Made by a program: the position numbers and the translations under genes. A stretch of DNA of 61,339 nucleotides, counting the filler. It is 5 parts of 5 records of this genome, joined end to end, with 100 filler letters (N's around TTAATTAATTAA, not from the genome) between each part and the next. Parts side by side here need not be neighbours in the genome. Positions count along the whole stretch, not along the records: positions 13,140 to 35,698 come from SRR20825006_510; 4 more parts are not named here. The stretch is one strand, 5' to 3'. Below are positions 13,140 to 24,926 of the stretch, one piece after another (positions within the stretch are counted from its first letter, which is position 1; each line of letters starts with the position of its first letter). A model generated the notes under the pieces. It was not told the origin of the DNA. It saw only the letters and a list, made by a program, of their open reading frames with translations, and did not search any database.

Positions 13140-13144
13140 ACAGT

Positions 13145-13219
13145 GGCCCGTTCGTCTATCGGTTAGGACGTCAGGTTTTCAACCTGAAAAGAGGGGTTCG
13201 ACTCCCCTACGGGCTGCCA
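13145..13219 (+). tRNA. tRNA-Glu (TTC)
   Basis: Cloverleaf: GGCCCGT/ACGGGCT acceptor stem, TCAGG-TTTTCAA-CCTGA anticodon arm, GGTTCGA T-loop, encoded CCA. Confidence 0.97.
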
Positions 13220-13224
13220 CTTGT
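13204..13224 (+). repeat. att core, tRNA side: CCCCTACGGGCTGCCACTTGT
   Basis: tRNA 3' end plus 5 nt; identical to 23820-23840. Confidence 0.95.
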
Positions 13225-13229
13225 CCATA

Positions 13230-14321
13230 TTATTCCTTTACTTTCAGTTGCTTGCCAGAAGTTTTGTCCAACTTGGATTGAAGGTTGGACACGTTTTTCG
13301 CTGTCAGCTTGGCAAATCCGCTGTCAGCTAGGCCGGATCGGTTGGCCTTCTTGGTGTAGGTCGCCGCCTCCTTGGTGTCGGTGTGCGCAAGGTAGGAAGC
13401 GATCTCCCATTCACTGGCCCCAGCGTTCGCCAAGCGTGTTGCACCAGCCTTGCGCAGGCCGTGCAATGATCCGGGAACACCAGCATCTACGCACCGTGCG
13501 CGGAACCAGTTTCCCAGAGACGCCACCTTGTACGGCGCATCCTTGTGGTCCAGCGTGATGAACAGCATCCGGTCGGCTGGCACGTTCAACAATTCCTCGG
13601 CCAGTTCCGGCAGGATCGGCAGATCGGCTGCGACCGATGTTTTGCCGCGACGGTAGGCAATGCGATCAACGCCATCCTTGCGGCTCACCAGTTGCTTGCC
13701 AGCCCGTGCAAGGTCTTGTCGTGCCATGCCCGTGTTCAGCGCCAGCAACAGCACCAACCGCGCTTTGGTCCCCGCACCATGACAAGCAAGAAACCGTTCG
13801 ACCTCATCATCCGTCCATGTGTGATAGCCGTCCGGGTTGGTCTTGCGTTTCTCTGCAAACTTGGCGGGGTTTGGCCCCGTGTAGTCCAGTTTCTTCGCCG
13901 CAAAATTGTACAGCATCGACAAGTTCTTTTTGACTGTGTTCGCCGCCTGCGGCCCGTCCTTCTTCGACATAATCGCTTCGATGTGACGGACCTTGAGCGT
14001 GTCGAAGTGGTATTTGCCCGCTTCAATGCGCAGCCAATCAAGTTCCTGCCGGATCGTGCGGCGTCGGCTGTCAGACAGGTTCTTGAACCGGACGCTGCCC
14101 AGATACTGTTCCACCAGCCATGACAGCGAACCACGGGCAACCGTGGATCGGATCGGGGCTTTGACCCCAGCCAATGCCGCTTCATAGGCGGCGCGAAATT
14201 CGGGGGAACCATAGGCACCTGGCAGATATGTATCGACCGGCGCTTTGCGGAACCGCCACATGACAGTGCCGTGACGGCTCACTGTCCGTGAAACATGGGG
14301 GAAGGGATTGCGGCGGGCCAT
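13230..14321 (-). CDS. int: tyrosine recombinase/integrase
   Basis: Catalytic set present: TGMARQD (R), HGLRK (HxxR), LAHT (H), TYT (Y). Confidence 0.95.
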   Translation of the reverse strand: MARRNPFPHVSRTVSRHGTVMWRFRKAPVDTYLPGAYGSPEFRAAYEAALAGVKAPIRSTVARGSLSWLVEQYLGSVRFKNLSDSRRRTIRQELDWLRIEAGKYHFDTLKVRHIEAIMSKKDGPQAANTVKKNLSMLYNFAAKKLDYTGPNPAKFAEKRKTNPDGYHTWTDDEVERFLACHGAGTKARLVLLLALNTGMARQDLARAGKQLVSRKDGVDRIAYRRGKTSVAADLPILPELAEELLNVPADRMLFITLDHKDAPYKVASLGNWFRARCVDAGVPGSLHGLRKAGATRLANAGASEWEIASYLAHTDTKEAATYTKKANRSGLADSGFAKLTAKNVSNLQSKLDKTSGKQLKVKE

Positions 14322-14500
14322 CAGAGTAAATCATCCGGGTCCGGTGCGACCGACTTGGACGCGCCTTCGATAGAAGTCAGGACAACAATGGTGCCGTCCT
14401 TTTCGATCCGCGCCGCAGCCACAGAGAGACCAGCCGCTAGCATACCTTTGGCGGCGCGCGTCACGTCTGACTGTTTGAATTGTGCGGTGCGGTTGCTCAT
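14321..14500 (-). CDS. 59-aa putative excisionase/recombination directionality factor (MSNRTAQFKQSDVTRAAKG...)
   Basis: Hand-translated; TGATG overlap with the int start; function inferred from position. Confidence 0.6.
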   Translation of the reverse strand: MSNRTAQFKQSDVTRAAKGMLAAGLSVAAARIEKDGTIVVLTSIEGASKSVAPDPDDLL

Positions 14501-15027
14501 TAGTCAGCGTTCAGCGCCAAAGACGCAGCCATAATCGAATGTTTCATGAACATTGCGGATGCAAGCCGTGCAACCATTGTTCCAACTGGCAAGACCAATG
14601 CCGCATCACCAGTGAAACTACCCATTTCGCTCGCATCTCTGAACCAATGGACGACCGGGCGATTGTCCCGGATTTCCACTCGCATGATCGCATCTATGTT
14701 CATCTCGCCAGCAATGACATTTCTGTAAATTTCATCGACATAGGCAAATAGGACGTGAGGCGATTCAGGATCGTCGTCCAACTGAACACCAAACCTAGCC
14801 AGACGATCAAAGATAATGTTCCAGACCAGATGCATCCCGGTGTAATCAACAGAGGCCCGAATGCGGCCGTCCTGCTCACGCATCGCCATCACCTTTCCAG
14901 CCTTCAATCGCGCCCGCAATGTACTCTGGTTAACGCCAATCGTTGCCGCTGCCGACGCCCCCGACTCAAGGACAGTGCCCCAATTCGAATGAAGGAAGGT
15001 CAGTGCTTCTTTGGTAAAATTGTTCAT
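14500..15027 (-). CDS. 175-aa hypothetical protein with an N-terminal HTH-like segment
   Basis: AAGGAG RBS before ATG 15027; ASAAATIGVNQSTLRARLKAG resembles an HTH; TAATG coupling to the next gene. Confidence 0.6.
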   Translation of the reverse strand: MNNFTKEALTFLHSNWGTVLESGASAAATIGVNQSTLRARLKAGKVMAMREQDGRIRASVDYTGMHLVWNIIFDRLARFGVQLDDDPESPHVLFAYVDEIYRNVIAGEMNIDAIMRVEIRDNRPVVHWFRDASEMGSFTGDAALVLPVGTMVARLASAMFMKHSIMAASLALNAD

Positions 15028-15046
15028 GTGGAATCTCCTTTGGTTG

Positions 15047-15080
15047 ACTGTATTTCCATTTAGGTTGACAGTCAACCTAA
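15047..15080 (-). promoter_or_regulatory. sigma70 promoter overlapped by a 21-bp palindromic operator
   Basis: TTGACT(15075-70)-17 bp-TACAGT(15052-47); palindrome TTAGGTTGAC-A-GTCAACCTAA at 15060-15080. Confidence 0.7.
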
Positions 15081-15104
15081 TTAAATTGTCAGTCACCCAA
15101 ACAA

Positions 15105-15341
15105 TCACCCAATGACCCGGCGTTCCGCCGTCTTGATCACATGCTCCAGCATCGCCAGCCCTGTCTTGTCCGGGTTGTGGTAGTCGCCTGCGTCGAAGCA
15201 GGTCGCGTGTGCAATCTTGCGCAGGTCGGCATATGTCACTGGACGGCGATATGCCCGCCACAGACGGAACCGCTGCCACCGGGCGCGAAGTCCCTTTCCT
15301 GTCAAATAGGTTTGACCACGAAATGTAATTGATTTTGTCAT
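15105..15341 (-). CDS. hypothetical protein (78 aa)
   Basis: ATGA overlap with the upstream ORF; lies in the leftward operon. Confidence 0.55.
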   Translation of the reverse strand: MTKSITFRGQTYLTGKGLRARWQRFRLWRAYRRPVTYADLRKIAHATCFDAGDYHNPDKTGLAMLEHVIKTAERRVIG

Positions 15342-15550
15342 GTCAGTTTCCCCGCATCGAAACGATCAAGAAATTCAAAAGCCTGTTTTTCTGCCAAGGT
15401 TGGCGTCAGATCAAAATTGGAGTGTTGGGACAGCGCATATCTCGCAATCGACAGTTCACGAGCGCAGTTGCGCAGCACGTCGATCATGTCTTTAGGTTGA
15501 CAGTTATCGTTCGCCAAAACGGCGTTATTGTCGGTCATGGTGTTCTCCAT
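15338..15550 (-). CDS. hypothetical protein (~66-70 aa)
   Basis: GGAG RBS before the MTDNN start; coupled to its neighbours. Confidence 0.55.
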   Translation of the reverse strand: MENTMTDNNAVLANDNCQPKDMIDVLRNCARELSIARYALSQHSNFDLTPTLAEKQAFEFLDRFDAGKLT

Positions 15551-15553
15551 TGG

Positions 15554-15703
15554 TCAGGTTGCTGGGGTTTCGGTGCGTTCCATCCGTTCGCGGATCGCTC
15601 GGATGATTTCAGAGTTCTGGCTGGACACGTTCGCCGCAGCCTGTGCAGCAATCCAATCCTTTAGGTCAGGGGGCAGACGTAGCTGCAATTGCTTAGGTTT
15701 CAT
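15554..15703 (-). CDS. Arc-family ribbon-helix-helix regulator, 49 aa (MKPKQLQLRLPPDLKDWIAAQAAANVSSQNSEIIRAIRERM...)
   Basis: Hand-translated; GGAGG RBS; LRLP..LK..I...A..N..S.N.EI Arc pattern; absent from the ORF track. Confidence 0.85.
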   Translation of the reverse strand: MKPKQLQLRLPPDLKDWIAAQAAANVSSQNSEIIRAIRERMERTETPAT

Positions 15704-15716
15704 GTCAACCTCCATA

Positions 15717-15794
15717 CATATCACAATGCGACTATCGCAAAGTGCGAGTATTGCGTCAAGAGAAATATCATATCACAAAGCGATGATCGCAAAG
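15717..15794. promoter_or_regulatory. duplicated operator block between divergent Arc genes
   Basis: 26-bp direct repeat, 23/26 identical (15717-15742, 15769-15794), built from ATCRC-AAW-GYGAY-like units; TTGACG-17-GATAGT leftward promoter candidate. Confidence 0.65.
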
Positions 15795-15803
15795 GGATAC
15801 ATC

Positions 15804-16097
15804 ATGAGCGACGAACCATCAAAGAAACAAGACCAGTTTATCGTTAGATTTCCAGACGGTATGCGTGACAAGATCAAGGATGCCGCAGACCAGAACAACC
15901 GCAGCATGAACGCGGAAATTGTTTTGGCGCTGGAAGATTGGTTGACAAAAAATTCCAAAGAACAGATCGAAGCGCAACAACTGCGTGATGCCGCCAAGCA
16001 CATGATGAAGGAACGCAGTATGATCGAAGTTCGGCTTGCCGATATTCTCGCAAGGCTGGACCACATTGAAGCCCGTAGAGAACCTGAGAAGAAATGA
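15804..16097 (+). CDS. Arc-family DNA-binding repressor with C-terminal coiled coil (97 aa)
   Basis: QDQFIVRFPDGMRDKIKDAADQNNRSMNAEIV. Confidence 0.88.
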   Translation: MSDEPSKKQDQFIVRFPDGMRDKIKDAADQNNRSMNAEIVLALEDWLTKNSKEQIEAQQLRDAAKHMMKERSMIEVRLADILARLDHIEARREPEKK

Positions 16098-16324
16098 CGC
16101 CGGACTATCAAACCACTCTGAAAACGAATGATGCCGCCAAACTGCTGGGACGGTTAGCCGCGCGGATTGAAGCTGACCCATACGATTCCGCCAGCCGTAG
16201 TGCTTCCTTGGCAGTTGCCACTGCCATAAGCACAGGGTCCGGTAACATAGTAACTTTGTTCCTCACTGAAAAAGAGAAACAAGCCTGCATAGCCGCTGAA
16301 AGAGATTTTCGAGTAATCAAATAG
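16094..16324 (+). CDS. hypothetical protein (76 aa)
   Basis: ATGA overlap with the Arc repressor gene. Confidence 0.5.
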   Translation: MTPDYQTTLKTNDAAKLLGRLAARIEADPYDSASRSASLAVATAISTGSGNIVTLFLTEKEKQACIAAERDFRVIK

Positions 16325-16491
16325 GCCGGGACCATCCAGCCCCGGCCCAGACCAGCCCCGGTGCAGAACCGTGCTGGCCTCGCGCCACGCCCTCCAAAGG
16401 AATTGAAGGCCGCGCCTTGTCGGGGTTTACCCACTCACCGACGAACGGGGTTGCTTCTGGTCTTATCCCCAAGGCGCAACCCGCCTATCTC

Positions 16492-17568
16492 TTAAATGGC
16501 GGCGTCGCCCTTACCCCAATCCACCAGCTTCAACGCCTGCTCAGGATCGACACCCGCCTCTTTCGCCAGCGCCAGCGTCTGCACAATCGCGCCCAAGGCC
16601 CGCGCACGGCCACCAGCATCGAATGCTTGCAAGGGTCGCATCACATCCAGCTTGACGGGACTGCCCAGCTTTTCGGATGCCTCTTGCGCAATCATCGCCG
16701 CCACCGGCATGAGCGCCCATTGGGCAAGGTGCCTTTGCGCCTCTCTGACCATCGGTCCAGTGGTGGCGATGTTGCTCAGACCGGGCAAAACTCCATAGGC
16801 CATTTCGATGCCAGCCCGTGCCGCCGCCCATGTTTCGCGCGTCATGGCTTTGGACAGATCGGGCGTTACATCCTGAGACTTCCAATCTTGCACAGGTGCC
16901 GCCGCGCCCGCCGCCACCACGTTGACAGATTCGCGGATCAGCACCCGGCCACGATTGCCACGGAACCCACGGGCCAGCGCATCCATGTCTTGCTCAGGTG
17001 CCTCAGGGAATGGCACAATCTGCGAGCCGATAGGCGCGTTGTTGTAGACTTCGGACAGCGCCGTTTCCATCACATGCAACAGACCCGCCGTCAGCCGCGC
17101 CCGCCGCAGAGGCGACGAACCAACATAAGGCATGGTCATTTCCGAGCCGATACGCAGGTGCAGTACCTCGCCCGCCAGGACGGTCATAGTCTGCCCACCG
17201 CCCGCGTCGGGGATGCCGACACGATAGGCGACAGGCTTGGAAAAGCGCGTGGTCAAATCCCAATCCGAGCAAGGCAACAGCCCGTCCTCTTGGATCACAA
17301 ACACCGCTTCACCGCGCAAGGCCAGCGACCGCGCAGCAAGCGCCAGCATGGCCGGGGTCAGCAGATCGGTGCCGTCCACATCCGCCAGCATCAAGCCCCC
17401 TTCCCAGAGGGACACGCAGCCTTGGACACAGCCCGTAAGTTCGGCCACGCCATCAACGCCGCTGATATAATCGGCCCGCGCCGCCATGACTTGGCTGGTG
17501 TATCCGGTACCGCTGGACCGGGTTTCGACTTCGGCAATTTCTTGCACACGTTTCTTGAATGGCCACAT
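16492..17568 (-). CDS. phage portal protein (HK97-like)
   Basis: SLALRGEAV, EVLHLR, GSSPL, AYGVLP pattern; start MWPFKK coupled to the upstream stop. Confidence 0.8.
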   Translation of the reverse strand: MWPFKKRVQEIAEVETRSSGTGYTSQVMAARADYISGVDGVAELTGCVQGCVSLWEGGLMLADVDGTDLLTPAMLALAARSLALRGEAVFVIQEDGLLPCSDWDLTTRFSKPVAYRVGIPDAGGGQTMTVLAGEVLHLRIGSEMTMPYVGSSPLRRARLTAGLLHVMETALSEVYNNAPIGSQIVPFPEAPEQDMDALARGFRGNRGRVLIRESVNVVAAGAAAPVQDWKSQDVTPDLSKAMTRETWAAARAGIEMAYGVLPGLSNIATTGPMVREAQRHLAQWALMPVAAMIAQEASEKLGSPVKLDVMRPLQAFDAGGRARALGAIVQTLALAKEAGVDPEQALKLVDWGKGDAAI

Positions 17569-18113
17569 CACTTTGCCCTCCGATAATTGCGCAGCAGATC
17601 GCCAGCGCCTGAATACTGCATCGCACGCGCCACCCATGCCGGGTTGCGGTTCAACGATTCCTCGATAGGCCCAATGGAAACGGACGTGCTGGACGCCCCA
17701 GCCGTTCCCGGATCGTCTGCCAAATATTCGGCAAGCCGCCGGAAAGCCTCGTTCACGGGCGCAGGCACATCACCAGCGCCAACTTGGGCGGTGACGCGAT
17801 AGAAACCTGCACCTTGCAGACAGATGCCAATAGGCGCGTCCAAGAGCGTGATCGGTTCCCATGCGCCATCAATCCAAAACTCTGCCATCTGCGACACCAC
17901 AGGCGTCAGAGGTGGTGCCCAGATCGCCCCCGTGGTGCCTTCAATGATCCAAGTCACATCGCGTTCAGTGAACCGATAGGCGGTGTAGCTTTCGATCCTT
18001 GCCCAGATCGCATCGGCACTCAGCGCCGCCGCCGCCGTAGACAGGCCAGCAGGCACATCAGGATAAGCATCGGGTGTTTCCTCAATCTGTTTCAAAACGT
18101 CGATCATGTTCAT
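17568..18113 (-). CDS. putative head-tail connector/adaptor (gp6/gp15-like)
   Basis: RIESYT..F.ER, VPAPV.EA..RLAEY, C-terminal LLRNYRR; position in the head module. Confidence 0.6.
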   Translation of the reverse strand: MNMIDVLKQIEETPDAYPDVPAGLSTAAAALSADAIWARIESYTAYRFTERDVTWIIEGTTGAIWAPPLTPVVSQMAEFWIDGAWEPITLLDAPIGICLQGAGFYRVTAQVGAGDVPAPVNEAFRRLAEYLADDPGTAGASSTSVSIGPIEESLNRNPAWVARAMQYSGAGDLLRNYRRAK

Positions 18114-18748
18114 GCCCTCCAACGGTTGCGATGATTGCTGGGCAGAATTACCCCGCCGGGGGTGGCCACGTCCCACGAACGCGACTCAATCTGCGTTTCT
18201 GGATATGCTGGACGGGTCACAATCGACATTTCGTAGAGCAAGGCTGAAAGAACCGTGCGAATGATCGCATTGAACGCCCCGTTTTCAGGGTCAGTGCCTT
18301 CATCCTCAATCATTTCAGGCTGAGGAACGCGCCGCTTTGGGGGCAGACGAAAACCCGGTGAAATACCGATAGCCAAGCCCGCAGCAACCGCCGCAAGGAT
18401 ATCTTTGACATAGGATACCTCTTGCATTTCTTCGGTGATCGTCGCGGTGAAGGTCACGCCCGCATCACTGTCTTGAATGTCCAACGTACCAGAGCGCACA
18501 GACGCCAAGGGCCGGTCATAGCTATGGCCCGCCAGCAGGTGAATGTCTTTCTTGCCGCCGTGGTCGGATGGTGTGTTGATCCGATAGGCAAAGGCGCGGG
18601 GCGCAATCACCTCTTTCTTTGGCCTGCCGGTGCGGCCCCCATCGCTGAGGACCGCCCGTTTGCCGTAGGGAAAAGAGCCTTGCAGCGCCAGCGCGCCGGA
18701 TGCTCTCTTGCGTAGTTCCAGACCGCCGCCTGCAAAGCCCTCCAGCAT
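18110..18748 (-). CDS. HK97-family prohead maturation protease
   Basis: EVIAPRAF, LLAGH, GISPGF, LYEMSIVTRPAYPET. Confidence 0.9.
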   Translation of the reverse strand: MLEGFAGGGLELRKRASGALALQGSFPYGKRAVLSDGGRTGRPKKEVIAPRAFAYRINTPSDHGGKKDIHLLAGHSYDRPLASVRSGTLDIQDSDAGVTFTATITEEMQEVSYVKDILAAVAAGLAIGISPGFRLPPKRRVPQPEMIEDEGTDPENGAFNAIIRTVLSALLYEMSIVTRPAYPETQIESRSWDVATPGGVILPSNHRNRWRA

Positions 18749-20037
18749 TATGCAGCCGCCAATTGAATGTCGTTCAAGATGCGAGTTTGCACCGGACGCG
18801 CCACCGTCTGATCCATCGTTGCAAGCGCTGTAATCCGCAGCCCGCCTGATTGTGCATCGGTGTACACATCACGGATCAGATCCACCGCGCCCCATGTGCC
18901 GACAAAGACAGGTGCAACGCCGCCGGTAGACGTGGACAGGATCATGCTAGTGGCCAAGGGATCACCAGAAGGGGCAGGCAAGCCATTCGACGTGACATTG
19001 ATGTTTTGCGGGAATGTCCCGGTGACACCACGCCCAGCCAAAAGGAATGCAAGTCGATAGTATTCAGTCGTTTGCGTGACTGTGTTCAACGTGCCTTCCA
19101 GCTTGCCGAACAATTCCGGCCGCATCAGAGCGCGAATCTGCCCCGGCGATGTAATCGCGTTCGACGTCATGAACGCCACAACCTCATCCAGAAAGTTCTG
19201 GTACGTCGGTTCGTCACTCACATCGGTTTCAGTGATGCCGTAAGTCGATGCACCTGTGACAATGCCCAGAGGTTCGCCACCGGACCCCGCGCCCATAAAG
19301 ATCGCACGATCCATTTCTTGTGCCATCGCCCCGTTCATGTCTCGACGCACGGCCTGTTCAAGCGCAGCGCCCGATTGTTTGAGCGCCTTGCGGCTGATCC
19401 GCATTTGAATGCCCATCGTGTGATCGGGCTTCATGGCACGGTCAGTGGTGGTGTACTGAGTCGGGCCAGCGACGTTGCCGCCCTCAGTTGATGCCCAGCC
19501 TGCCGAGACGCTGGAAGTCGTCACCGGCCACTCGATTTCGCCGGACCCGATGCTGATCATCTGTGCGCCCATCTTTGCGGCCACACTGTCAGGAAACAGG
19601 CGGTCGATGATCGGGCGGGTCTGGATCGGGTCAGGTGTGCCACTGGACACCGTGTTGCGCACCTCAAGTGCATCCCAAGGAACCGGTATGCCGCGATATC
19701 CCCCTTGGCTGCGCAGCTCAGAAACGATTTCTTGCGTGCGGCCATCCAGTGCGCGGCCCTCATCAAGATTCAGCGCAACCTGGCGCATCTCGAAACCGGC
19801 CATCATGTCCGACCATTCTTTGTCAGAACGGGTTTCCAGTTCGGCCCCGGCGTCCCGGCGTTCCTCATCCTCAGACACCAGAGCGGCACGATACTGCACC
19901 TCTTTGGCCCGATATTCGGTATCCAGTTCGCCCATCTTGCGGGTTTCGTCCTCAGATGGCTTTTCGATGTTCGCCAGTTCCGACAGCGATTGACGGATTT
20001 CAGAGCGGCGCAGTTCCAGCTTTTTAGATGTCAGCAT
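18748..20037 (-). CDS. major capsid protein, HK97 fold with N-terminal delta domain
   Basis: Coiled-coil N-terminus; AGWASTEG, ISRKALKQS, DRAIFMGAG...PLGI. Confidence 0.9.
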   Translation of the reverse strand: MLTSKKLELRRSEIRQSLSELANIEKPSEDETRKMGELDTEYRAKEVQYRAALVSEDEERRDAGAELETRSDKEWSDMMAGFEMRQVALNLDEGRALDGRTQEIVSELRSQGGYRGIPVPWDALEVRNTVSSGTPDPIQTRPIIDRLFPDSVAAKMGAQMISIGSGEIEWPVTTSSVSAGWASTEGGNVAGPTQYTTTDRAMKPDHTMGIQMRISRKALKQSGAALEQAVRRDMNGAMAQEMDRAIFMGAGSGGEPLGIVTGASTYGITETDVSDEPTYQNFLDEVVAFMTSNAITSPGQIRALMRPELFGKLEGTLNTVTQTTEYYRLAFLLAGRGVTGTFPQNINVTSNGLPAPSGDPLATSMILSTSTGGVAPVFVGTWGAVDLIRDVYTDAQSGGLRITALATMDQTVARPVQTRILNDIQLAAA

Positions 20038-20353
20038 TTGTTTTTCCTTTCATGCTCGACAGAAGGTCACGCCATTGCTGGCGCTTTGGAGAAAGCGGGG
20101 TGTGACCCACTTCCAATCTCGTTTTGCGCGCATGACAGCGCCCGCAGAGAATTTGTAAATTCGACAGGGTGTAAGACAGGTCAGGCCGATCCCGGACGGG
20201 CAGAACGTGGTCACATTCCAGCCGCCGCCGTTCGCCGCACTGAACGCACTGCCAGCCGTCACGGTCCAGCGCCTGCATCCGCAGAGCCTTCCAGCGCGGC
20301 CCGCGTGTGACCTTGGCAGAGTGCCGCTTGTATTCGTCGCGCAGCCTGCTCAT
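20024..20353 (-). CDS. HNH endonuclease (HK97 gp74-like packaging factor)
   Basis: RW..LR...L.RD...CVQC, DHVLP, NLQILCGRCHARKT. Confidence 0.92.
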   Translation of the reverse strand: MSRLRDEYKRHSAKVTRGPRWKALRMQALDRDGWQCVQCGERRRLECDHVLPVRDRPDLSYTLSNLQILCGRCHARKTRLEVGHTPLSPKRQQWRDLLSSMKGKTNADI

Positions 20354-20700
20354 GCCGTCACCTGCATGTCGTAACAGATCGTCACGCCGTCCGGCCCAAG
20401 GATGCCAACCCGCTTGATCTCATAGGTCTTGCCACCGATCACCAGCGTGTCAGACTTCATTGGCACCACATCCGCCACGGCCATGAACACGCGCAGATCA
20501 GAAACTCCGATCAGGGTGCCGTCCATGTCCTCGATGCTGTATTCAGTCACCGCGACCACCACCGGATATTCCAGCGGTTCATTCGGTTCGGCGGGTGGAT
20601 CGTCCCACGGATTTTGCGGTTCGTCCGGTTCGGTGGACGGTTTCACCAGCGTTGCCGCCTGCCCGAAACGATTGATCAGTTTCGTGGCTGTTTGCGTCAT
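20350..20700 (-). CDS. putative head-closure/head-completion protein
   Basis: ~116 aa, beta-rich; LINRFG, DGTLI..D, DTLVIGGKTYEI; coupled to terL and HNH. Confidence 0.55.
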   Translation of the reverse strand: MTQTATKLINRFGQAATLVKPSTEPDEPQNPWDDPPAEPNEPLEYPVVVAVTEYSIEDMDGTLIGVSDLRVFMAVADVVPMKSDTLVIGGKTYEIKRVGILGPDGVTICYDMQVTA

Positions 20701-22232
20701 TACCCCCATGCCAGTCGTCCTTTCGCTTGTGTTGGTGCGTGGCTCATTCGGACACCCTGAGCGACGGCCAGAACCGTCGCTGCAACCGGATCAATCCGAC
20801 CCGTAGAGCGGCCAGCGGCCAGCTTGTGATTGCCCGCCGGATCAACCAGCGTGATTGCGTCGGAAAATGCAGAGCGCAGCAGCAGCGACGGCATGGCCTT
20901 CACCTCGCCCTCGAACACGGCACGGCGCAGGCGTTCGCAATCCTCAGAGCCGTCTTTCCATCCGAACCCGCGCCAGATGAACGGCACCCGATCAAGGCCC
21001 GCATCGCGCAGAGCCTCTAGAAATTCAGCGTGGCGGAACCTGTCACCAACGATTGCCACCGGGCTTTGCCCGTCCAGCTTGGTCACAACGTCAGCCATGA
21101 ACCGGGCGACCGGCACAGTTGCGTCACCCATCGTCACCAGTTCGCCACGGTCAGCCATTTCAATGTACCTCTGGCCCACGCCGTCAGCCTGCCCACGATC
21201 CCCAAGACCGGGCTTGCAAGGGAAAGCCCCGACACATTCCAGCCGTGACGTTTCGGGCCAGTACATCGCCGCCGCAGACATTGACCGCGACCCGCCGAGG
21301 TCGATGCCCAGAACAACAGGCCCGGAACGTGGGGGCAGATCGTCGGGCGATACCTCGCAGGACAGCCATTCATCGACGGTCAACAACACCGACCGGTTGT
21401 CAGAGGCGACCCGTTCATTGCGATTAAGGTTTCGGAAGCTGGACAGTGCAGAGCCGCCCCGTGCGATTGCCCGCCGCGCCTGCGCCACCAGCCATTCCGC
21501 AGAGGGGCCAATACCCTCAGACGCGCCGGGGTTCGCCACCAGCAGGCTTGCCAGATCGTCAGGCGGCAAGCCGGGGTCAGGGCGATGTTCTTGCACATAA
21601 GTGCCGGGCGGCGGTTCATCCATCCAGCGTGAAAACGTGTTCGCATCGTCGGGGGCGGATGTGCTGATAATCAAGGCGCGGCCATCGCGCTTGCCCAGCC
21701 CGGACAGGATGGCGTTTTCCAGCGCGTCACCCTTGTCTCGTTCCCATGCAGCACGTTCATCTAGGATTGCCAGCGTCGGCGCACCGCCGAGAATAGACTT
21801 GCCGTCAGCCGCAATCACCCGCGCAAGCCCGCCGCCGTTCTCAGAGGTTTCGACTTCCAGCTTTGACCCGCGCCGGATCGTGAATTGTTCCTGTTCGTTC
21901 TCTGGCAAGCCCTCGATGAAACCCAAGAGGAACCCGAAGGCCGTCTTGGCTTGGTCCCGGTTCCGAGCCGCAAAGATGATTTCACGTTTCGGTTGCGGTG
22001 CAATTTCGCCCATCAGATGCCCTAGAGCGATGCCTGCCGACAGACTGGTTTTCGCGTTGCCGCGACCGATCGACAGAATGCCCGCTTCGATGCCCTTGGC
22101 GAACGCCCCCCGCACGAAGTCTTTCTGATATGTCGCCAGTTTGACCCGCTTGCCCGCCAACCGACCCTCAGGAACGATCAGCTTGGGAAGGAAACGCAGC
22201 GCCGCCGATGCCTCTTTGGATGCCCTAACCAT
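20700..22232 (-). CDS. terL: terminase large subunit
   Basis: YQ motif, Walker A GRGNAKT, Walker B AILDE, IISTS motif III, GIDLG nuclease motif, RIDP. Confidence 0.92.
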   Translation of the reverse strand: MVRASKEASAALRFLPKLIVPEGRLAGKRVKLATYQKDFVRGAFAKGIEAGILSIGRGNAKTSLSAGIALGHLMGEIAPQPKREIIFAARNRDQAKTAFGFLLGFIEGLPENEQEQFTIRRGSKLEVETSENGGGLARVIAADGKSILGGAPTLAILDERAAWERDKGDALENAILSGLGKRDGRALIISTSAPDDANTFSRWMDEPPPGTYVQEHRPDPGLPPDDLASLLVANPGASEGIGPSAEWLVAQARRAIARGGSALSSFRNLNRNERVASDNRSVLLTVDEWLSCEVSPDDLPPRSGPVVLGIDLGGSRSMSAAAMYWPETSRLECVGAFPCKPGLGDRGQADGVGQRYIEMADRGELVTMGDATVPVARFMADVVTKLDGQSPVAIVGDRFRHAEFLEALRDAGLDRVPFIWRGFGWKDGSEDCERLRRAVFEGEVKAMPSLLLRSAFSDAITLVDPAGNHKLAAGRSTGRIDPVAATVLAVAQGVRMSHAPTQAKGRLAWG

Positions 22233-22235
22233 GAT

Positions 22236-22320
22236 TTTTCCCCCAAATTTTTGGGAGAGAGAAAGCAAGACCCCCCACCGCGACCGCAGCCCCTCCCCAA
22301 AAGGGGAGCATTGGGACCTT
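22236..22320 (-). other. putative cos/packaging site
   Basis: GGGGAGGGG..CGCGGTGGGGGG..CTTTCTCTCTCCCAAAAATTT directly upstream of terL; resembles cos regions of HNH-dependent phages (from memory). Confidence 0.45.
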
Positions 22321-22424
22321 ATATGGCGTTGAAGTCAGAGAGAAATTTCCTTCTATGGGATACTGATCTGTCGTCACGACGATCTCCAATATTATACATG
22401 AGTTAGCGTTATGTTGTAACAACT

Positions 22425-22842
22425 ATTTTTCTAGACATACTCCCGCACCCGCTACTGTCCCCCTCTACACAAGGATTAGTTCCTTGCTCGGCTGACAGTC
22501 CTACCTTCCTGATCCGTATCCACGCGATGCCCTGTATCGGGGGCCAGCCGCTGTCCCGCTGGGTTCTCTCCAGCCCCGTCCTTTGCAGCCTTGCGCCGGT
22601 ACGGTCCCCGCACTGAGGCGGTGGGTTTCTTAGTCGCGTTTCTGAGCGGCCTAGTAGGCACTGGTTCCGCTCGGAGTGGGTTAAAAGTTCCCGGATCATA
22701 TCCCCGCCGATTTCGCTCGACGGTCAAAAGCTAGAACGTGGCCCGCGTCCGGTGATGTGCCCCTATGGGTATGCTCACTATGAACGCGGGCTGTTGCTTC
22801 ACCCGTGACGCGACTGCCGCTCTACAGCAGCGCCACGGGCGG
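22425..22842 (-). ncRNA. candidate large structured RNA / replication origin region
   Basis: Continuous series of hairpins; no credible protein ORF. Confidence 0.45.
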
Positions 22843-23094
22843 TTAGCTTTCGATCAAGTCGAAGTCGCCCCCATCGTCGCTGTCAGGCGCGAACAGGTCA
22901 TTGACCAACCCGTGCATGACAGACAGTTGTTTCGTGGAAGGGGTCCAGCCCCGGCGGCGCGACTGTCCTATGACGGACTTCGCAAAGTTCTTGGACCATT
23001 CGTCAGTAGCCAAGCGGGCGACGGTCGGCATGTGATAGATCAGGCGGTCCACTTCATCATCGGCCTGGAAGGGTTTGCGGTGTTGATACGTCAT
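22843..23094 (-). CDS. hypothetical protein (83 aa; DEWSKNFAKSV..Q.RRRGWTPSTKQ)
   Basis: GAGG RBS, ATGA coupling. Confidence 0.7.
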   Translation of the reverse strand: MTYQHRKPFQADDEVDRLIYHMPTVARLATDEWSKNFAKSVIGQSRRRGWTPSTKQLSVMHGLVNDLFAPDSDDGGDFDLIES

Positions 23095-23360
23095 GCCAGC
23101 ACCTCCCCATCCAGAACCCCGAACAGAGCCATAGAGGCCGCGCGATATGCGGTGTCGTCGTCCAGGGTGACCAGAGCCGCGCAGGCCAGCGCCTCGCGCT
23201 CCCCTACGGTCAGACGTGCGGTCAGGACGGTTACGAACCCTTCCCAAGCCTCGGAGTTCGCCACGGTCAGGACGTACCCGAATGCTTTAGCTGCCCGCTT
23301 GTGACGATCCTCTGCGAACAGGTTCATGGCGTTGGGGCGGGGAATGTGGTGGATGCTCAT
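23091..23360 (-). CDS. hypothetical protein (89 aa)
   Basis: ATGA coupling at both ends. Confidence 0.65.
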   Translation of the reverse strand: MSIHHIPRPNAMNLFAEDRHKRAAKAFGYVLTVANSEAWEGFVTVLTARLTVGEREALACAALVTLDDDTAYRAASMALFGVLDGEVLA

Positions 23361-23575
23361 GCCGACTTCCCCCCGATCTTGAAGGGACGCTTGGTCAAAC
23401 CGGCAGTTACCTTTGCATCAGCGATTGCCGATTCACGGCAGGACCAGCGGCGCAGGCGTGTCTTGAGGCTCTTGCCGGGGCAAGGCGTGATCAGCACCAC
23501 GTCGAAGTAGCGGCCCGCCTTATTCACGGTGTAGTAGCTGGTCGCCGCCGTGGGCAGCTTGGTGATGTTGCTCAT
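23357..23575 (-). CDS. hypothetical basic protein (72 aa, MSNITKLPTAA...)
   Basis: ATGA coupling at both ends. Confidence 0.65.
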   Translation of the reverse strand: MSNITKLPTAATSYYTVNKAGRYFDVVLITPCPGKSLKTRLRRWSCRESAIADAKVTAGLTKRPFKIGGKSA

Positions 23576-23840
23576 GCCGCCACCCCGCAGAAATGCCGCA
23601 GGATAATTGCTGGCGCTCCGGCCCATTCCGGGCTATCGTTGCCGGGAAACTCGACCGTTTCTTTACTGCCCTTTACGCCGTTGAACCCTGCAAGGTTCGC
23701 GGCGTTTTTTTTTGCCGGTGTCCGGTTGGGCAAACCGGAATTTTCCCCAATGCTTTCAATGGGGCTGATTTGGTAGGTTGGGATTCCCAACCCGTTGTTA
23801 TCTTTAGGGTAATTTTGCCCCCCTACGGGCTGCCACTTGT
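23572..23840 (-). CDS. att-split ORF: 3' part of a 90-aa frame whose RBS and ATG lie at the other end of the element (13238-13226)
   Basis: In-frame join across the att core in the reconstructed attP; stop coupled (ATGA) to the next gene. Confidence 0.55.
23820..23840 (+). repeat. att core, distal copy
   Basis: Identical 21 bp to 13204-13224. Confidence 0.95.
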
Positions 23841-23900
23841 TCTTCCCTCCACAATTGAGACGCGCACGCCCCCAGGGGCGCGAAATAATGCGCGTCACAC

Positions 23901-24926
23901 CTACCCCGCTTGCTGCGAGGTTGGCTCGTTCGTGTCCAGGCCGCGGCGCAGTGCCGGGCTGTAGAAGGTCTGGCGGCCCCGCCCTGCCCGTTTCGAGGCA
24001 TAGAGCGCCACATCCACGTCATCGAGCAGGCTGCGCATGTCCGCACCCGATCCGGGCTCAAAGAACACGGTGCCGATGCTGGCCGAAATGCAGCAATCGT
24101 TGCCCTCGAACGGCATCGGCACCTCGAGCCGTTTGATCAGGCGGCTGCCGATGCGGCGCAGGGCGGGGATGTCGCGCACGTCAGGCAGGACGATCACGAA
24201 TTCATCGCCGCCCAATCGCGCCACCGTGTCTTCGCTGCGGGTTTCGTCCACCATGATTCGGGCCACGGTTTGCAGCACATGGTCGCCCGCCGCATGGCCC
24301 AGCGTGTCATTGACCAGTTTGAAGAAATCCAGGTCCAGTTGCATCAGCGCAAACTGCGTGCCCCGTTCCAGCGCGCGCGCCATGACGTGATCCATCGCGC
24401 GGCGGTTTTTCAGCCCCGTCAGCGTGTCGGTGAACGCCTGTTCCTCGGCGGCGATCATCGCCCCCTGCAGGCGCAGGTTCAGCTTGCGCCAGGCTTCCAT
24501 CGCGGTTGATTTCGCCTCGACCAGATAGAGCATTTCCGTGGCCAGGTCCGTGGGAGCGAAATCGGCATGGGTCAGGTCATAGGTGCGCACTCCGTCCACC
24601 ACCGAGATGCCAAAGGACAGGTTCACGATCAGCACCCCGTCGGGCCCGCAGGCCACGGCCACGCCCTTGAGTTCGGTCACCGGAGAATCGCGCAGTTGCA
24701 GGTGCAGCTTGATCCCCGCACTGTCGCGCAGGTCGTTCATGCTGGTCACGGTGCGCGGCCGTTTCAGGGCAAACACCTCGAGAAATCGGGCGCCGACCCA
24801 GTCCAGATCGGGGCGCAGTTTGCGCAGGGTGTCGCCCACGTGGATAATGTGGCCCGTGTGATTGATCATCACATGCATCGGGCACAGCACGTCCAGCACG
24901 TCGGACATGTTGTCCGGGCCGGTCAC
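23901..24926 (-). CDS. diguanylate cyclase with N-terminal PAS/HNOBA-like domain
   Basis: TDTLTGLKNRR, DLDFFK..ND..GH, RLGGDEF. Confidence 0.9.
   Translation of the reverse strand: MTGPDNMSDVLDVLCPMHVMINHTGHIIHVGDTLRKLRPDLDWVGARFLEVFALKRPRTVTSMNDLRDSAGIKLHLQLRDSPVTELKGVAVACGPDGVLIVNLSFGISVVDGVRTYDLTHADFAPTDLATEMLYLVEAKSTAMEAWRKLNLRLQGAMIAAEEQAFTDTLTGLKNRRAMDHVMARALERGTQFALMQLDLDFFKLVNDTLGHAAGDHVLQTVARIMVDETRSEDTVARLGGDEFVIVLPDVRDIPALRRIGSRLIKRLEVPMPFEGNDCCISASIGTVFFEPGSGADMRSLLDDVDVALYASKRAGRGRQTFYSPALRRGLDTNEPTSQQAG

Follow-up and report, generated by a model that had tools for sequence, protein, structure and literature searches.

What does a small integrated element carry in the place where its replication module should be? 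The question arises in a 61,339-nucleotide (nt) stretch of DNA, here called the window and made of five genome parts joined through filler, in which the part at 13,140 to 35,698 (record SRR20825006_510) contains a 10.6-kb element with capsid and packaging genes. Beside those genes, at 22425-22842, an original prediction made from the letters alone had described a hairpin-dense non-coding tract and had proposed for it either an RNA-primed replicon or a new large non-coding RNA. Our comparative analysis indicates with high confidence that the tract encodes a structured RNA of about 360 nt that had not been described before, on the minus strand at 22436-22793 and perhaps reaching up to 22840. The 418-nt tract is essentially equal to this RNA gene, because a conserved core, a 5' helix, a GC-rich hairpin and a 3' terminal hairpin together span it.

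The structured RNA

Homologues were collected from genomes and IMG/VR contigs with two independent sequence patterns and nhmmer; members with neither pattern would be missed. The first pattern, a 17-base block, occurs in 102 genome stretches, many of them chance matches in other phyla (about 69 estimated by chance), and in 23 IMG/VR contigs, mostly of 10-12.7 kb. Among 154 loci nhmmer gave 58 strong matches, including 22 of the 23 viral loci, and the second pattern, which is independent of the block, added 62 new loci, 50 of them matching. Since many second-pattern loci carry variants of the 17-mer, the block is not truly invariant. After removal of duplicates there are 74 distinct full-length instances, that of the window and 73 relatives.

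The fold model for these sequences has 70 pairs in 15 helices, two pseudoknots included. Its helices were suggested by RNAalifold and by our own mutual-information scan, and its pairs were counted on a MAFFT alignment of the 74 sequences. Standard pairs fill 89.8% of 5125 cells, compared with 77.8 ± 0.3 in shuffles (0 of 500 shuffles reach 89.8%), and pairing is only 32-47% when the partners are slid by 1-3 columns. Covariation is seen in the aligned homologues: 45 of the 70 modelled pairs change on both sides with pairing kept (34.9 ± 2.1 in shuffles), and double-change cells number 545 (163.6 ± 9.9 in shuffles). Alignments were made with MAFFT or nhmmer, with no covariance model behind them, and are imperfect at the 5' hairpin, at the helices of columns 264-278 and at one pair of a 3' helix, which is out of register in one subgroup.

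In the hairpin at columns 341-357 all cells are paired, the middle pair being A-U in 37 sequences, U-A in 20 and G-C in 17, and the long-range helix of columns 89-94/409-415 has double changes in all six pairs. Pseudoknot 1 (PK1) joins a hairpin loop to the 3' tail; its first pair is C-G in 40 sequences and A-U in 34, and is canonical in 74 of 74. Pseudoknot 2 (PK2) joins a second hairpin loop to a purine stretch, with a pair that is U-A in 35, A-U in 25 and G-C in 12. These patterns argue strongly for a compact core closed by two long-range helices and locked by PK1 and PK2. Size differences are limited to hairpin tips, many conserved nucleotides are unpaired, and the G runs of the G-rich 3' end are held in conserved helices and PK1. 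A 5'-3' closing helix, proposed by RNAalifold from five sequences, was dropped because its three registers give only 6-71 canonical pairs per position on the 74 sequences, with many G-G and A-G cells, and because PK1 occupies the same 3' bases at 73-74 of 74 canonical.

Every one of the back-to-back stems listed in the original prediction is present on the minus strand, and the tract ends as it had stated, in a G-rich stretch with A5 and AT-rich DNA after it; its list lacked the pseudoknots and the two long-range helices. The minus-strand fold of the tract reaches -172.3 kcal/mol, which is matched by 0 of 100 shuffles (z = -3.0), and the plus-strand fold is matched by 13 of 100 (z = -1.3); the comparative evidence is stronger than either. 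A further claim, that G-U wobbles favour the minus strand for some stems and the plus strand for others, failed: 47 well-aligned pairs hold 83 G-U against 65 A-C cells, and 44 of the latter belong to one pair that is out of register in one subgroup, leaving 83 against 21. The RNA strand is 34.9% G, 21.6% A, 29.3% C and 14.2% U.

A protein-coding reading of the tract was tried and is ruled out. Runs of insertions and deletions relative to the window sequence divide 104/446/120 by length modulo 3, and therefore the tract is non-coding; of the 73 relatives, only 13 and 28 preserve the frame of the window's 96- and 83-amino-acid (aa) open reading frames (ORFs), respectively, across 80% or more of their length, so that by both measures no conserved protein ORF lies in the region. 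With Rfam 15, the whole window at the gathering threshold matches tRNA-Glu alone, the best score within 22100-23100 is 17.5 bits against a gathering score of 77.9, the tract searched at E up to 10 gives nothing meaningful, and 20 homologous loci give no match on the RNA. The second of the two original proposals, a new large non-coding RNA, is thereby supported. Full-text literature searches found no description of the RNA; the accessible part of the Minerva preprint (bioRxiv 10.64898/2026.09.22.753630) is without mention of terminase, satellite or topoisomerase, and PMC13669383 proved unrelated. A blastn search of 22200-23100 against 50,697 phage-genome records gave no match.

Beyond the core, the 5' extension forms the helix GCCCGCGU/ACGCGGGC in the window, and in at least 20 of 69 singly folded loci the corresponding position, 38-59 nt upstream, is taken by a helix whose sequence differs between loci; this evidence is based on minimum free energy and is weaker than that for the core. 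The GC-rich hairpin next to it, whose position is occupied by comparable GC hairpins in other loci, may be the 5' terminal hairpin of the RNA or a weak terminator of the upstream genes. On the other side, conservation between related loci ends just past the 3' terminal hairpin.

Distribution, element and neighbours

The relatives sit in Rhodobacterales genomes and IMG/VR contigs. Named carriers all belong to Rhodobacterales-type genera (e.g. Paracoccus, Roseovarius, Ruegeria, Sulfitobacter, Rhodobacter), and there is one partial match in a metagenome-assembled genome labelled Arachnia (L212). Culturable strains among the carriers are Sulfitobacter mediterraneus DSM 12244 (L042), Paracoccus sediminis DSM 26170 (L014, L080), Tropicimonas isoalkanivorans DSM 19548 (L033) and Citreimonas salinaria DSM 26880 (L096). 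Even sampling gave matches in 7 of 400 further genomes of the family and in 0 of 400 further ones of the class; these counts are lower bounds, because only two candidates per genome were scored.

We compared 49 close pairs of loci, defined by 85% identity or more across the RNA centre and not independent of one another. Homology stops between -12 and +30 nt from the RNA 3' end in 19 of them; 17 of these keep homology for 58-1389 nt upstream, and the other two also stop at the RNA 5' edge. Homology continues at least 74 nt past the RNA in 7 of the 49, and the alignment ends within the RNA in 23. Three loci (L188, L204, L216) share little but the RNA, which is 86-87% identical between them with flanks that differ within 60 nt. 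We are highly confident that the RNA is a sharp-ended cassette and that its carriers are integrative mobile elements of Rhodobacterales. Crossover within a conserved gene can account for the sharp boundaries, which therefore call for no site-specific process. One locus (L068) has a second, partial copy at 972-1055 (model positions 189-268), 220 nt past the full copy and before BrxA/BrxB.

In the window, the two exact 21-nt repeats, one of them at the 3' end of tRNA-Glu, define an element that therefore spans 13204-23840 (Table 1). On its minus strand it carries three small proteins, the RNA tract, the terminase large subunit, head closure, HNH, capsid, protease, portal and integrase, the order of the packaging genes from terminase to portal being unusual. 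Among its ORFs scanned with Pfam and PHROGs (six small ones with Pfam only; Pfam covered the window's eight small ORFs and two ORFs of L217) no tail gene, small terminase or replication protein was recognised, and over this scope the earlier statement that the element encodes no recognisable Rep or primase holds. The element is small and integrated, and it has capsid, portal, protease and terminase genes of its own but no tail genes; in this it agrees with a capsid-forming phage-inducible chromosomal island (PICI), and it looks like a capsid-forming satellite. The RNA, 1.08 kb inside, closes the early side: it follows an 83-aa protein (p83) and precedes a promoter-like site and the terminase gene.

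Table 1. Coordinates of the RNA, its flanks and the elements that carry it (window positions unless a locus is named).
Feature	Position	Strand	Remarks
Conserved core of RNA	22439-22741	minus	about 300 nt; nhmmer E = 9.5e-73; sole copy in window
Long-range helix	22693-22698/22510-22515	minus	74-sequence covariation model
Long-range helix	22634-22639/22522-22527	minus	74-sequence covariation model
PK1	22678-22681 with 22447-22450	minus	hairpin loop and 3' tail
PK2	22654-22659 with 22499-22504	minus	second hairpin loop and purine stretch
5' extension	22741-22791	minus	helix 22784-22791 with 22741-22748 around variable insert
GCCCGCGT/ACGCGGGC stem	22784-22791 with 22741-22748	minus	in sequence
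GC-rich hairpin, GCCCGTG..CACGGGT	22801-22840	minus	starts 2 nt past p83 stop codon
CCGTCGA/TCGGCGG stem	22704-22723	minus	in sequence
GAGCGG/CCGCTC stem	22667-22672 with 22644-22649	minus	in sequence
CCGC/GCGG, CCGT/ACGG and GCTGG/CCAGC stems		minus	in sequence
CAAGGA/TCCTTG stem inside ACTGTC/GACAGT stem		minus	in sequence
3' terminal hairpin	22433-22443	minus	GGA..UCU here, GGC..GCC elsewhere; sequences of 74 loci
Promoter-like site GTTACA-N18-TATAAT	22391-22420	minus	consensus scan, 10/12 matched
Palindrome GTTACAACATAAC	22408-22420		overlaps promoter-like site
p83 (83 aa, conserved)	22843-23094	minus	directly upstream of RNA
Terminase large subunit	20700-22268	minus	phrog_9 3.1e-56, Pfam TerL_ATPase 1.6e-10; first gene downstream of RNA; likely ATG near 22231
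Terminase leader	22200-22318	minus	about 80% identical in terminase loci without RNA (L001, L004, L022, L023)
tRNA-Glu	13145-13219		
attL, 21-nt direct repeat	13204-13224	plus	3' end of tRNA-Glu; exact repeat of attR
attR, second copy	23820-23840	plus	exact repeat of attL
Integrase	13230-14321	minus	
Host-type genes (GGDEF/H-NOX, MttB)	from 23901		
Ruegeria element, L217	6738-13237		
Ruegeria element, L218	7920-14417		
Ruegeria element, L219	1223-7730		

The promoter-like site stands at the 3' end of the tract, about 160 nt before the terminase gene, and is likely a regulated promoter of the packaging genes; the scan found one such site where 0.6 were expected. In most satellite-type loci the RNA is followed by palindromes, which in some cases are present twice. 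They fall into three classes (GTTACA..TAAC, TAGGTAA..TGACCTA and TTGCGAA..TTCGCAA types), which look like operators of different immunity groups and are in keeping with a regulated promoter. The terminase leader contains a CTCCCC..GGGGAG hairpin and may be a cos site or a late leader; its conservation between loci indicates that it belongs with the packaging module and not with the RNA. Eight loci without a co-directional upstream gene (L174, L181, L189, L198, L203, L204, L213, L216) share a conserved motif (ATCAATACACTTAG / TCGATACACTTGG type) about 115-125 nt upstream of the core, which may be a promoter or binding site for the RNA gene itself.

The gene upstream of the RNA is often one of two kinds. 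On the strand of the RNA, p83 is found upstream in 39 of 74 loci and ends within 130 nt of it in 34. Its predicted model has three helices (pLDDT 78); it has no match in Pfam, PHROGs or NCBIfam and no fold match in the PDB at E <= 0.001, and its 12 database relatives are all without a name. In 13 of the 74 loci there is a protein of about 300 aa upstream (phrog_6247 match), and seven loci have both. These longer neighbours show R-x-x-F-Y, a conserved E, DxDxxG and an ELDA-type C-terminal box, which are marks of the Mini-A type IIB topoisomerase-like proteins in the accessible text of PMC7671362; by sequence, nothing significant was found for them in the PDB. Among the loci with Mini-A (e.g. 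L007, L021, L040, L047, L056, L088, L102; topoisomerase VI-A-like genes), its end lies at a constant 85-88 nt before the core in ten, and in three further ones it lies about 360 nt before the core, with p83 in between.

The RNA had been said to lie where a replication module should be, and the relatives bear this out. Terminase searches returned 29 loci in Rhodobacterales-type genomes, of which only 4 have the tract, and loci with terminases 88-93% identical to that of the window carry different DNA in the slot of the RNA. At L001, where the terminase is 93% identical, the slot holds a RecA/RepA-like ATPase, and the relatives that combine this packaging module with the ATPase are without the RNA. 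Elsewhere the RNA directly follows Mini-A or, in L160/L220, a series made of integrase, AlpA, ParB_N, helicase, Toprim_3 primase and RNase H with a zinc finger.

Genes downstream of the RNA vary. They include head-tail adaptor plus terminase, capsid, portal, protease, BrxA/BrxB, type I restriction, SocA and SNF2, and no downstream gene or operon is constant across loci. In three Ruegeria genomes the RNA belongs to a 6.5-kb element with two tyrosine recombinases, one serine recombinase, an excisionase-like gene and ORFs without assigned function. There the RNA is outermost, divergent from its neighbour gene and reading outward, and homology ends 5-20 nt past it, beside three different host genes. 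The other end of the L218 element abuts a tRNA-like fragment and a second integrase island.

Several further features of these elements were seen. In the window, two 26-nt direct repeats 52 nt apart adjoin an Arc-like ribbon-helix-helix ORF (Pfam 6.6e-14; 15717-15794 and 15528-16097, plus strand), likely a repressor with its operators. A stretch near attR (23572-23655) recurs over 66-95 nt at 84-97% identity in L013 and L025 despite differing DNA between it and the terminase, and may be an early control region. Three loci, L037 (3065-3116), L047 (595-646) and L091 (3023-3074), have an Rfam serC leader on the strand opposite the RNA, at 0.8-1.1 kb upstream of it, and may thus be elements integrated at a common site near serC.

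What the RNA may do

As a tentative best guess, we hypothesize that a folded RNA or ribonucleoprotein (RNP) serves the replication or maintenance of the excised element. This role is favoured because the RNA travels with the early module, replaces the gene of a RecA/RepA-like ATPase and often follows genes of DNA enzymes. The RNA would be made as the tail of the early transcript or, in loci without a co-directional upstream gene, from its own promoter, and would act as a free-standing folded RNA or RNP and not as the leader of the following genes. Its likeliest job would be replication or maintenance at or next to the junction with late or cargo genes, in company with p83, with Mini-A or primase/RNase H where these are present, and with a factor conserved across the host clade; this chain of steps, taken jointly, is possible but doubtful. 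For the whole explanation, new RNA and proposed role together, we see a reasonable chance that stays short of even.

Several points weigh against this explanation. Defence cargo (BrxA/BrxB, type I restriction, SocA, SNF2) follows the RNA in several loci, which a regulatory or trans-acting role would fit equally well. The Ruegeria elements have recombinases, an excisionase-like gene and unassigned ORFs only, so that a replication role is not required there. Neither p83 nor Mini-A is upstream in 29 of the 74 loci, although in 8 of these the upstream DNA is shorter than 300 nt. Priming of DNA synthesis would not by itself call for an elaborate pseudoknotted fold. Finally, the covariation controls are inflated for two reasons: the fold model owes part of its structure to the window sequence and the consensus, and the aligned sequences are related to one another.

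Ranking close behind a replication or maintenance role, and itself rather unlikely, is a trans-acting RNA directed at a host or helper-phage machine, whether as a decoy, an anti-defence factor, a means of hijacking helper or gene transfer agent particles, or a ribozyme, with the replication-type neighbours incidental. Such a role would suit an RNA whose sequence is highly conserved across elements with differing proteins, which is sometimes all that two elements share, which has many conserved unpaired nucleotides, which is found in one host clade in the genomes sampled, and which stands alone at the end of the Ruegeria elements. It is less readily reconciled with the constant position at the early/late junction, often beside DNA-enzyme genes, and it gains nothing from Rfam, where the RNA is similar to no known RNA.

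An RNA-primed origin was the first of the two original proposals. By analogy with ColE1, the G-rich 3' end would form a persistent hybrid, RNase H would cut it and Pol I would extend it into AT-rich DNA. The RNA does stand where the replication module would be, its element in the window has no recognised Rep, an RNase H gene is directly upstream in L160/L220, and the 60 nt past the terminal hairpin of the G-rich end have a median of 56% A+T, against 36% in the RNA body. However, A+T of those 60 nt is at least 55% in only 41 of the 74 loci and below 45% in 10, the 3' G runs are paired in conserved helices and PK1, no promoter-like site was found on the plus strand within 22150-23950, and no Rfam match resembles RNA I or RNA II. 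The RNA is also present in elements that have primase/helicase or Mini-A genes of their own, and it forms the outer end of recombinase-only elements; its sequence conservation and pseudoknots exceed what priming needs if the features of ColE1 are taken as usually described. A Rep-less origin of the ColE1 type is thus improbable, and the analogy is possible only in the loose sense of working like one.

Slightly less probable again is a cis-regulatory leader of the downstream operon, be it a processive antiterminator, an attenuator or a large riboswitch. In satellite-type loci the RNA immediately precedes the downstream genes and shares their strand, and the window scan found no intrinsic terminator after it. 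The downstream genes are nonetheless unrelated between loci, and a promoter-like site with operator palindromes separates the RNA from the next gene. The attenuator that the original prediction had offered as an alternative is weakened further by the Ruegeria elements, which end right after the RNA with no element gene left to control; the position of the RNA at the very end of these recombinase-only elements therefore points to a stand-alone RNA rather than a leader.

We give still less weight to a structure that forms in single-stranded DNA, as the single-strand origin or the primosome site in a replicon of rolling-circle or satellite type. The tract is strand-specific, cassette-like and confined to one host clade, and the catalytic tyrosine of Mini-A, as its motifs suggest, could nick DNA; but two pseudoknots, long conserved unpaired stretches and frequent G-U pairs are typical of RNA, and scans of the window element and neighbouring loci found no HUH Rep. 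A guide or bridge RNA for a recombinase or nuclease, with the variable DNA past its 3' end as the guide, is very improbable: the outward reading at the Ruegeria element ends, the sharp 3' boundary and the Spo11-like Mini-A adjoining it in 13 loci would suit it, but it is disfavoured because Pfam scans of the neighbours found no TnpB, IscB or IS110-type gene and because complementarity to the attachment sites is absent (in the window, the longest RNA match to attL/attR on either strand is 6-7 nt, against a shuffled mean of 7.2), while the RNA of the window lies well inside its element and crossover within a conserved gene would give the same boundary.

A bolder and improbable reading would make the RNA the nucleic-acid subunit of a new RNP with p83 and, where present, the Spo11/topoisomerase VI-A-like Mini-A, active in RNA-dependent DNA cleavage or replication initiation at the junction after the RNA gene; alternatively, the RNA would itself be a new large ribozyme. 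If true, the RNP would supply the orphan Mini-A family with both a partner and a function. More generally, the RNA may explain how small satellites without a replication gene maintain themselves, may reveal a partner for Mini-A proteins, to which no function has so far been assigned, and marks the cargo junction where defence systems and packaging modules are exchanged. It is open to experiment, with 74 distinct sequences, two well-supported pseudoknots, a defined genetic address within small mobile elements of marine Rhodobacterales, and culturable type-strain carriers.

Comparison with known systems

Large RNAs with conserved tertiary-type folds are rare, and to our knowledge the large folded RNAs described so far are ribozymes, riboswitches, RNP scaffolds or members of the unexplained GOLLD, ROOL and OLE class. 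In ColE1/pMB1 the primer RNA II is controlled by the antisense RNA I. The RNA described here resembles RNA II as a predicted long folded transcript, in belonging to an element with no recognised Rep and in having G runs just before AT-rich DNA. It departs from RNA II in its lack of an Rfam RNA I match or antisense promoter-like site, its pseudoknotted and sequence-conserved core, its company of primase, helicase or Mini-A genes, and its presence at the end of recombinase-only elements.

The omega RNAs of TnpB/IscB and the bridge RNAs of IS110 share with the Ruegeria copies a position at the element end, an outward orientation and a sharp 3' boundary. They differ in their nearby nuclease or recombinase, of which there is no counterpart here, and in the complementarity to attachment sites that the RNA of the window lacks; this copy, moreover, is internal. 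Single-strand origins of the ssoA type are, like our RNA gene, non-coding, strand-specific, folded, exchangeable as cassettes and narrow in host range, whereas pseudoknots, long conserved unpaired stretches and the lack of a HUH Rep gene set the RNA apart.

The neighbours and the element have relatives of their own. The proteins of about 300 aa in 13 loci share their motif set with Mini-A proteins; the accessible text of PMC7671362 describes no RNA partner for these, and the window's own element is without Mini-A. With capsid-forming PICIs, as far as their available descriptions go, the element shares the size of a 10.6-kb island and a content of integrase, capsid, protease, portal, head closure, HNH and large terminase without tail genes. 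It differs from them in lacking a recognised AlpA, pri-rep and small terminase, in its unusual gene order and in its Rhodobacterales host clade.

The RNA itself can also be compared with the GOLLD, ROOL and HEARO-type RNAs, large ornate RNAs of prophages and mobile elements (bioRxiv 10.1101/2024.12.08.627333, accessible part). It matches none of their covariance models, is smaller at about 300-400 nt and is limited to Rhodobacterales in the samples searched. Like them, however, it is a large, intricately folded RNA that rides on mobile DNA and that was found by comparison of sequences.

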